In this document: one piece after another, positions 43,801-46,800 of the stretch
Position numbering within the stretch: the stretch's first letter is position 1
How the letters are laid out: every line of letters starts with the position of its first letter
Assembly: GCF_964204645.1 (NCBI RefSeq)
Contig: NC_134027.1
Location: 4,124,485 to 4,188,484, forward strand
Direction of reading: 5' to 3'
Source: Tubulanus polymorphus
Taxonomy: Eukaryota > Animalia > Nemertea
Length of the DNA stretch: 64,000 bases
Position numbers and translations under genes: made by a program
Notes under the pieces: model-generated
What the model was told of the DNA's origin: nothing
Seen by the model: only the letters and a program-made list of their open reading frames with translations
Database searches by the model: none

Positions 43801-46800
43801 GAAGATGTGCTGGTAGAATACGGTGCTGATATACACGCTATCGACAGTGGCAGTGGATTCCCTACGAAGGAAACGCAACATAACTTTGAAGAGGATGTTT
43901 CTGTGAGTATTATTTATTCGTCACTGTTACGAATCTGATTATTTCAGTGGACCATTTTGATTTACTGGCGTTGTTCGTGTATTTGTAGGAATATATCGAC
44001 AGTGGCTGGAATTTGAATAATTTACCTGTGGAAGAAAAATCTATTCTTCATCACATAAATGCCAATATATCCGGCATGAAGGTGAGTATACAATGAAAAT
44101 TCGATGATACATACATGTATCGCTTTCCTTTCGAATAGAAACTGTCAAAGCTTCTACTATTAAAGGTAAAAGCCATATTTTTATAACTCGAATCAATGAA
44201 TCCCTTGCGACTGGTTGAGATGGAGAAGAGGTTGGTGGAATTACTGATGTAAATGTTTTGTAGGTCCCCTGGTGTTATGTAGGCATGTGTTTTGCCAGTT
44301 TTTGCTGGCACAATGAGGACCATTGGAGTTACTCAATCAGCTATAATCACTGGTAAGCATAATTTATATTTCTCATCATACGTTTATACTTTGTAGATTC
44401 CCTGGAACTATGTCGGCATGTGTTTTTCGAGTTTTTGCTGGCATAATGAAGATCATTGGAGTTATTCAATCAATTATTTGCACTGGTAAGTATTGAACGC
44501 TGCCCTGTCTGAGCTGCTGTTTTATAATAACACTGAATGCTATATATTACTAAACTGAATTGCTCATTCAGTAAAAAAGAACTTTTGTCTACGATCTGGG
44601 CTGTTTATTGATCCATATCTGTAACTGGGTTAATTTATGTTTTTTCACTGAATTAGTAATTGGAGTTCAACGACAGCAGGCTGATAGGGCAGTGTTAGAG
44701 AGTAGTAATGGCACACTTCTTCTTTGTGACCCATTTTCCTTATTTTGGGTGCAACCCGGTGTTTGTTTTTTTGTCCTGTCTTGTCCCTCAACTGCGTGTG
44801 GTTTTCTTATAAATGTAAATTCCTGGGTTGGTTTCATTTAGTCGCGAATGATTCTCATCAGTGGCTTGAACAAATTGAACATTGAATTCGTCATGATTAT
44901 GAAACTGATCCCTCGATGATATGAAATATGCACAAAGTCTTTAGCAATGATATATGGCGAATGGGTCACAATGTGTGTGAATAATATAATCTTGCACATA
45001 GCACTTATGATATTACATCCTATGATGGAGATGGAAGGTTACAGGTTTCACTGCTCTTCTAGTAAAAAAATACTATCTGAGCTTTAAAAAGAGACTGCAG
45101 GTAGTGTAGTATTTGATCGATAGTAGATTACCAGTAGTGATAGTGCATTGTGTATTCAAATATGACCAGAAAAGCATGTAACACTCCTGATGATGATTGC
45201 CCTAATTTCTTCTTTCAGCTGTTAGATTGCTTTATTGCAGCCTCTAAATGCAACAATCATTTGTATAAGTTGCTCTCTGCACTTTTCTAATGTAAATATA
45301 TTTTTGATAGGGGTGAGCCTAAAACATGGTACGGCGTACCGGGAGATTGCGCGGTTCAGTTCGAAGAAGCGATGAAGAAAACAGCTCCTGAATTATTTGA
45401 AAACGCTCCTGACTTGCTGCATCATATCACTACGATCATGAATCCCAATATTATCATGGATTATGGTGTGCCTGTGAGTTCACTGAACAATCATTTCCCG
45501 GCAGTTACAGTTTTGAATCGTGTCTGCGAATGTTGTATTTCTTTCAATAGGTCGTAAGAACTGATCAATGCGCCGGTGAATTTGTCGTTACATTCCCGAG
45601 GGCTTACCATGCCGGGTTTAACCAGGGATATAACTTTGCTGAAGCTGTTAATTTCTGTCCAGCTGATTGGGTGAGTCATAGATACTGTTAGAGGCCATCG
45701 CTTGTTATAACCTCGCCTTAAATTACTTTGATTACGGAGCCGCCATCTGAAATTCCGCCAAAAACGTTATTTTTCTGTAAAAATTGCTTTTAGAACGGTG
45801 TTTTTACTTTTACCGAAAATACATTTTGCTTTTAACTGAATGACTTTGTTCGATATTTTTCTAGTTACCAATTGGTCGTAGTTGTATAGATCATTACAGT
45901 GAACTACATCGTCAGTGCGTATTCTCTCACGAGGAACTCATCTGTAAAATGGCTGCTGATCCGGATAGTTTAGATCTAAATCTCGCTGCAGTTACGCACG
46001 CCGATATGTTAGCGATGGTTGACTCGGAGAGAAAACTTCGTAAATCATTATTAGATCGGGTGAGTTGTTATTAAAGTTCTGTATTCTTCGGTAACTTATT
46101 TATACAGCGTCTTCCAGTCGGGGAATTATATTTGTTAATGATCGTTTGTTTACAGGGAACGACTGATGCCGAACGTGAAGCATTCGAACTGTTACCCGAC
46201 GACGAGAGACAATGCGATGTTTGTAAGACTACATGTTTCCTGTCGGCGGTCACGTGTTCTTGTTCTAGTAAGTATCTTGGATCAACCCCTTGAAGTCTTC
46301 GTACAGTATTAATTGAGTTATTTGAGTGATTCATCGATGTTTTGATTTATAGCGAGACTGGTGTGTATAAAACACGTTGAAGAGTTATGTTCGTGTTCGC
46401 CGTCGAATCACTGTCTGAGATATCGATACACGTTAGACGAGTTACCGGCCATGTTACATCGCCTGAAAATACGAGCTGAATCGTATGACAACTGGGCAGC
46501 TAAAGTGAAGTTTGCTCTCGAAGCTACCGGCAATCAGAAATTAGGTAAATATCCTGCAATTCTCTTTTGTCTTAAGGTTTCATGAATAGTAGTGGAAGTG
46601 GTGATAGTAGTACCAGTCTTCGTACTCGTGATGCAGTTCTTGCGATACTAAGTTGAAATTAGTCCATTTTCGATGAGTTATCTCTCTGAGTTGAATCAAC
46701 TCAGAACTGTGAAATTTTCCTCCGTTGTAGAATTGCAAGGTTTGAAAGATCTCATACACGAATCAAAAGAGAAGAAATTTCCCGACAATGAAATATTATC

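Follow-up and report, generated by a model that had tools for sequence, protein, structure and literature searches.

The KDM5 gene and its duplicated exon

A KDM5 (JARID1/lid) gene occupies about 37856-52330 of the + strand in the 64,000-nt stretch of Tubulanus polymorphus DNA analysed here (the window), and it is within this gene that an earlier note on the same sequence had flagged a long-range RNA hairpin. A long exon of the gene found its top matches, at about 70-74% identity, among lophotrochozoan KDM5 proteins, including those of oyster and nemertean, and among the 27 proteins compared the highest summed tblastn score over the gene was obtained with Lineus longissimus (2469 bits; next 2338). 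Elsewhere in the window, ORFs at 19119-24115 presumably belong to an IQSEC/Sec7 ARF-GEF gene and those at 58700-61255 to an SLC17-type transporter, and a near-duplicated stretch is present at about 26500-26670 and 29400-29500.

The segment of the gene that concerns us comprises two tandem 89-nt exons, A and B, and their constitutive flanks:

43990..44081, + strand: 3' part of the constitutive KDM5 exon directly upstream of the cluster, identified from its translation, with spliced contigs that join it to A and to B
44264..44352, + strand: exon A, 89 nt, a JmjC active-site exon ending in SISYNH, 83% identical to exon B in register, matching KDM5A/B chains and joined to the previous and next exons in run X3
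44353..44396, + strand: 44-nt GT-AG intron between A and B, with branch-point-like adenines 10-34 nt from the donor of A
44397..44485, + strand: exon B, 89 nt, the canonical SINYLH copy, joined to the previous and next exons in runs X3 and X5
45311..45473, + strand: constitutive exon after the cluster (GEPKTW...), with joints from A and from B

The exon at 43990..44081 closes with Met-Lys codons and is followed by a phase 0 donor at 44082. Exons A and B are of equal length and the same phase and differ at 17 of 87 coding nt, with five synonymous and five non-synonymous codon differences. The intron downstream of the cluster (44486-45310) measures 825 nt. Its description in the earlier note as much longer than its neighbours was correct for the adjacent spliced introns (77-199 nt), but other introns of the same gene reach about 1075-1090 nt and orthologous introns without exon duplication reach 757-934 nt. 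In another intron of the gene (39848-40922), a local structure at 40500-40970 that lacks long perfect arms was more stable than 20 of 20 shuffles (z -4.1).

Splicing of exons A and B

Splicing was assessed in contigs from four (X2-X5) of 10 listed runs, representing two samples; of these four, X3 and X5 were treated as RNA by their GT-AG joints, without an RNA record, and X2 and X4 are unspliced. Run X3 provided the joints previous-A, A-next, previous-B and B-next, with one contig each at depths of 15 and 20 and hence no measured ratio, and run X5, from a second study, provided previous-B and B-next; the splicing evidence for exon A comes from one run of one sample. Neither an A-B joint nor one that skips both exons was present among the 10 joints listed; because contigs lose rare variants, the absent A-B join is no proof of exclusion. 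The premise of the earlier note that A and B are mutually exclusive was supported by these contigs, in which both exons are spliced to the same flanks, and we consider it nearly certain.

The sole intronic contig of the spliced run X3 (241 nt, depth 6) maps to 44860-45100. It begins at an AG, finishes just before a GT and fits a candidate poison exon of 239 nt (44862-45100) with stops in both relevant frames; it may be one pre-mRNA fragment, since no joint to it is listed. In the unspliced runs X2 and X4, the longest and deepest contigs cover 44529-46283, with chimeric loose ends elsewhere.

What keeps the two exons apart

The 44-nt intron between A and B is likely too short to be spliced and likely enforces exclusion alone: by established splicing rules, U1 on the donor of A and U2 on the branch point of B, about 23 nt away, would be unable to bind together. 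Because 89 is no multiple of 3 (89 mod 3 = 2), inclusion of both exons or of neither causes a frameshift, and such transcripts would be degraded. For two-exon clusters, a short intron and nonsense-mediated decay (NMD) are given as sufficient mechanisms in the available part of PMC6071210. If the 44-nt intron and NMD suffice here, exclusion would require no RNA structure, and we hold it very probable that exclusion is steric, supplemented by frameshift decay. Our main reading, to which we give a probability of roughly 0.5, is that either A or B enters the KDM5 JmjC domain, likely as a result of a 44-nt intron too short to splice, and that the predicted hairpin, internal to the following intron, at most biases the A:B ratio.

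Predicted hairpins in the 825-nt intron

Two structures were predicted downstream of exon B:

44496..44696, + strand: hairpin H1, with nested stems of 14 bp, 8 bp and about 21 bp (the last interrupted), identified from arm sequences, predicted fold and helix statistic
44724..44971, + strand: long-range stem H2, outside the finding of the earlier note, with predicted pair probabilities of 0.97 and 0.86 and energies of -23.9 and -18.9 kcal/mol

H1 begins at intron position +11 relative to the donor of B. All six arm sequences that the earlier note had reported were recovered in place, and its three nested stems are present in both the MFE and the centroid structures. The predicted fold of H1 has an energy of -62.3 kcal/mol (z -3.2, with 0 of 200 shuffles as good), and its helices have pair probabilities of 0.91-0.99 within a 1484-nt context; judged by this modelling, H1 probably forms. 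The z score varied with the segment chosen, from -5.3 for 44496-44696 to -3.0 on a fixed grid, where H1 ranked 10th of the 228 segments scored, and -1.6 for the whole intron. Comparison with shuffles, the check that the earlier note had set, gave a divided answer. With position corrected for, 10 of 100 whole-intron shuffles contained local structure of equal stability and the total energy is not significant, but in the uninterrupted-helix statistic the best helix (-28.1 kcal/mol), the best two (-52.0 kcal/mol) and the best four (-86.6 kcal/mol) were each matched by 0 of 500 shuffles, which indicates a real excess of helices in the intron. The corresponding antisense counts were 3, 1 and 0 of 200. 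The inference of RNA-level structure that the earlier note had drawn from G-U pairs proved weak: the minus strand reached z -4.8 against -5.3 for the sense strand, and G-U pairs add little where the two strands differ so slightly and the sense strand abounds in G and T (base fractions T 0.361, A 0.280, G 0.196, C 0.162). A search of the window with Rfam 15 returned 0 matches at gathering score (best local E 2.3). A pre-miRNA was considered and is unlikely, given the branched interior of the predicted structure.

H2 starts 27 nt after H1 and consists of a 13-bp stem (44724-44736/44959-44971), the second-best helix of the intron, and an inner 13-bp stem (44825-44837/44899-44911); the whole H2 domain has a z of only -1.2. 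If H1 and H2 contribute to the A:B ratio, they would do so by folding co-transcriptionally with the donor of B left outside the stem, and would shorten the 825-nt intron to about 376 nt of unpaired path (10+27+339, from the coordinates). Over the shortened path, the downstream intron could be committed to splicing sooner, which would tilt the balance between A and B. Intronic stems that bring splice sites closer (approximation) are an established mechanism in the accessible text of PMC4691838 and PMC3535345. That H1 and H2 matter for splicing at all is, on these predictions, slightly short of an even bet, and between a ratio-tuning, intron-shortening stem and a decayed inverted repeat the odds for H1 are about even.

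Inverted repeats of the window and a possible transposon origin of the stems

The window is rich in inverted repeats. A foldback element of 351 nt (42769-43119) lies in a KDM5 intron; its arms are about 90% complementary (156 of 174 colinear pairs), and its z is about -28 on both strands. Inverted-repeat elements at 48156-48506 and 55495-55609 carry 8-nt target-site duplications, from the length of which we take them to be hAT-like, and further inverted-repeat elements lie at 53981-54340, 54655-54972 and 57813-57858.

Against this background, H1 and H2 could be what decay has left of the terminal inverted repeats of small, non-autonomous DNA transposons, without any role in splicing and with the exon pair and its steric exclusion unaffected. 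When the window was divided into 76 tiles of equal size, the 825-nt intron ranked 8th-9th on the helix statistic; the seven tiles above it on the best-four measure all have arms of 19-56 bp. The arms of H1 and H2 (14 bp with 2 G-T, and 13 bp) are within the size range of other elements of the window, three of which (48156-48506, 53981-54340 and 54655-54972) are of similar size, with 13-22-bp arms around 200-350 nt. A transposon origin would also agree with the small strand asymmetry and with orthologous introns: 23 distinct single-exon orthologous introns were scored (from 36 of 250 nt or more, taken from 63 loci), and two of the 23 score as high as the 825-nt intron in the absence of exon duplication. 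The structure of H1 and H2 speaks against such an origin: their arms are not colinear, in contrast to those of the foldback element at 42769-43119, but consist of short helices split by non-matching sequence, and two elements would need to lie back to back with the first only 10 nt from a donor. Neither H1 nor H2 has a target-site duplication of at least 4 nt, whereas two of five control inverted repeats have 8-nt ones; target-site duplications are lost in old elements. No other copy was found in the 64-kb window, nor any diverged contig (88% or more) on H1 in the unspliced runs X2 and X4, a search with partial cover and no positive control. Taken together, we regard a transposon origin as a real contender that is still somewhat improbable.

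Hairpin H1 as a proposed chooser between A and B

The earlier note had proposed that H1 chooses between A and B, as RNA pairing does in Dscam1, 14-3-3 and Mhc. This claim fared badly, with both arms of H1 in one intron and no competing partner found, and that H1 is the switch itself is very improbable. The 44-nt intron likely enforces exclusion alone and no docking/selector competition was found; H1 is therefore not taken as the chooser.

In a more specific version, H1 would actively select A or B through docking/selector or bidirectional pairing of the kind seen in Dscam1, 14-3-3 and srp. This version draws on position, since H1 follows the mutually exclusive exon (MXE) cluster directly and its first arm, at +11 of the donor of B, is where a downstream selector would sit, and on helices that exceed those of shuffles. 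Partners for nine arm segments were sought in the upstream intron, the A-B intron and the two exons. No counterpart to H1 exists after exon A, and the best duplex of the nine segments with the A-B intron reached -7.9 kcal/mol. Pairing of donors and acceptors with the 825-nt intron was no better than in shuffles (104, 160, 111, 231 and 203 of 300), and pairing with the upstream intron was equalled at 11 of 100. The strongest alternative partner of the 3' arm lies within exon A and gave -19.8 kcal/mol against -28.1 and -15.3 kcal/mol for its own partners. The predicted accessibility of the donor of B was 0.29 both before and after the 3' arm of H1 was present. With exclusion requiring no structure in any case, we think a docking/selector role highly unlikely.

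Two candidate pairings were rejected. The first involved an element at 45128-45154 that is complementary to the donors of A and B, but its pairing did not exceed that of shuffled sequence (104 and 160 of 300). Pairing of the 5' arm of H1 with the true acceptor through a shared 8-mer gave -14.2 against -28.0 kcal/mol for its own partner (p 0.07) and was rejected as a conserved feature; pairing of a 5' arm with the acceptor was present at p<0.05 in 4 of 36 introns. One further pairing, outside H1, is retained as a weak lead:

44286..44361, + strand: predicted pairing of the exon A coding sequence with its own donor, evaluated by synonymous randomisation

About 27 of 1000 synonymous randomisations (with approximate codon usage) and 3 of 32 single-exon orthologues gave a pairing as strong.

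Least probable of all, and very unlikely, is that H1 is an ADAR substrate with functional intronic editing: it offers a long-range duplex with one A opposite C within stem 3 (44573/44646), but no uninterrupted helix in it exceeds 14 bp, neither the covered exons nor the intronic contig at 44860-45100 had any base difference listed (spliced cover did not reach H1), and, unlike in ADAR editing-complementary sequences, both arms are intronic and neither pairs with an exon.

Active-site residues of the two forms

The segment encoded by exon A or B gives a gap-free alignment with the active-site segment in structures of human KDM5A/B/C. In KDM5B (PMC5636616), the metal is bound by His499 and Glu501, and 2-oxoglutarate is contacted by Ser507 and Asn509, the latter of which also touches succinate and other TCA acids. 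By spacing, A and B both retain His, Glu and Ser, and A has Ser in place of Asn509 (SISYNH vs SINYLH). Among 483 related proteins, a set biased toward exon A, this position is Asn in 475 and Ser in eight; judged from these sequences, Ser for Asn appears rare but natural, and since natural Ser variants exist, the A form need not be dead. Exon B for its part has Asn at one position, presumably in the substrate pocket, at which no Asn occurs in any of the 146 distinct segments compared.

The swapped exon thus holds two of the three KDM5 iron ligands together with cosubstrate contacts, an unusual target for a known class of mechanism. Should the A and B forms differ kinetically, they would constitute a natural experiment on metabolic sensing by a chromatin enzyme. 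The hairpin matters only if it sets the A:B ratio, and the interest of the locus lies more in the exchange of an active-site exon.

The segment in other lophotrochozoans

Annotated isoforms of two other species vary in the same place. The Lingula anatina isoforms XP_013414673.1 and XP_013414674.1 are of equal length and differ only within the 30-residue segment, at six residues; those of the chiton Liolophura sinensis (XP_064606539.1 and XP_064606540.1) are likewise of equal length and differ only within this segment, at three residues. Compared by protein alone, both pairs thus resemble the Tubulanus forms in confining their variation to this segment; unlike Tubulanus exon A, they both retain the 2-oxoglutarate-binding Asn. 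Among the 146 distinct segments, the nearest to exon A is that of Lingula X1 (28 of 30 residues), and exon B comes closest to the common type, which is that of Lineus (29 of 30). Two versions were seen in two of 18 multi-member clusters, among up to 15 listed members of each, and one version in the other 16; the four Lineus isoforms contain no second version. The further isoform look-up covered nine singletons and one pair. The exchange of this segment between annotated isoforms of a brachiopod and a chiton suggests that the duplication is either old or recurrent; with only thirty residues, shared ancestry and repeated duplication are indistinguishable.

None of 63 metagenome KDM5 loci, 42 of them with both flanking exons in view, contained a second copy of the exon (four weak scores of 38-40), and none resembled the 825-nt intron beyond short matches. 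One of the two high-scoring orthologous introns belongs to a bivalve-like locus, L038, and has its stem at +12 to +193. This locus is closest to Mya arenaria proteins; its intron (L038:3048-3368) contains an incomplete, broken copy of the following exon together with the acceptor, and the +12 arm pairs with that partial copy or with the real acceptor. A second locus, L046, has a partial second copy of the 3' end of the exon just downstream of it, at about 2950-2985 of the oriented sequence.

No report of exon switching in the KDM5 JmjC domain was found in the literature searched, which lay mostly outside subscription journals, and the accessible portions of PMC6168629 and PMC12153100 contain nothing on it. 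The most far-reaching proposal compatible with the data would be that an old and so far unreported splicing switch, shared by several phyla of lophotrochozoans, exchanges the catalytic core of their H3K4 demethylase, and that in Tubulanus form A has Ser at the site of the Asn that binds 2-oxoglutarate, succinate and 2-hydroxyglutarate, giving two enzymes of different metabolite or oxygen sensitivity whose ratio is set by tandem intronic stems; we consider this full combination unlikely.

Comparison with known systems

With Dscam1, 14-3-3, Mhc and srp, as described in the accessible text of PMC6071210 and PMC4691838, the locus shares long-range intronic pairing beside duplicated exons, and it differs from them in that no competing or exon-looping pairing was found. 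A role in approximation, as in srp (PMC4691838) and the Dscam locus control region, is plausible for H1 and H2.

The locus control region of Dscam exon 6 (PMC3535345) likewise has tandem intronic stem-loops near a donor that shorten the intron. That element lies upstream of its cluster, whereas H1 and H2 lie downstream; it works with a docking site, a partner not found for H1 or H2; it cuts the distance to <50 nt, as against the roughly 376 nt left here; and it shows covariation. H1 and H2 resemble a locus control region only in layout.

For the exon pair itself, the comparison is with sterically excluded clusters, defined in the accessible part of PMC5740500 by <50 nt from donor to branch point and comprising 57 of 629 human MXE clusters. 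The word KDM5 is absent from the main text of that article, and, in contrast to the clusters it describes, the exon here encodes the 2-oxoglutarate contacts of a histone demethylase along with two of its iron ligands. As in sterically excluded two-exon clusters, the exons are tandem, homologous and of equal length; each is joined to both common flanks, with no A-B joint among those listed; the distance from donor to branch point is <50 nt, the whole intron being 44 nt and its branch-like adenines unmapped candidates; and the exon length is not divisible by three. With four features in common, the A/B pair of the Tubulanus KDM5 gene belongs to the class of sterically excluded tandem mutually exclusive exons.
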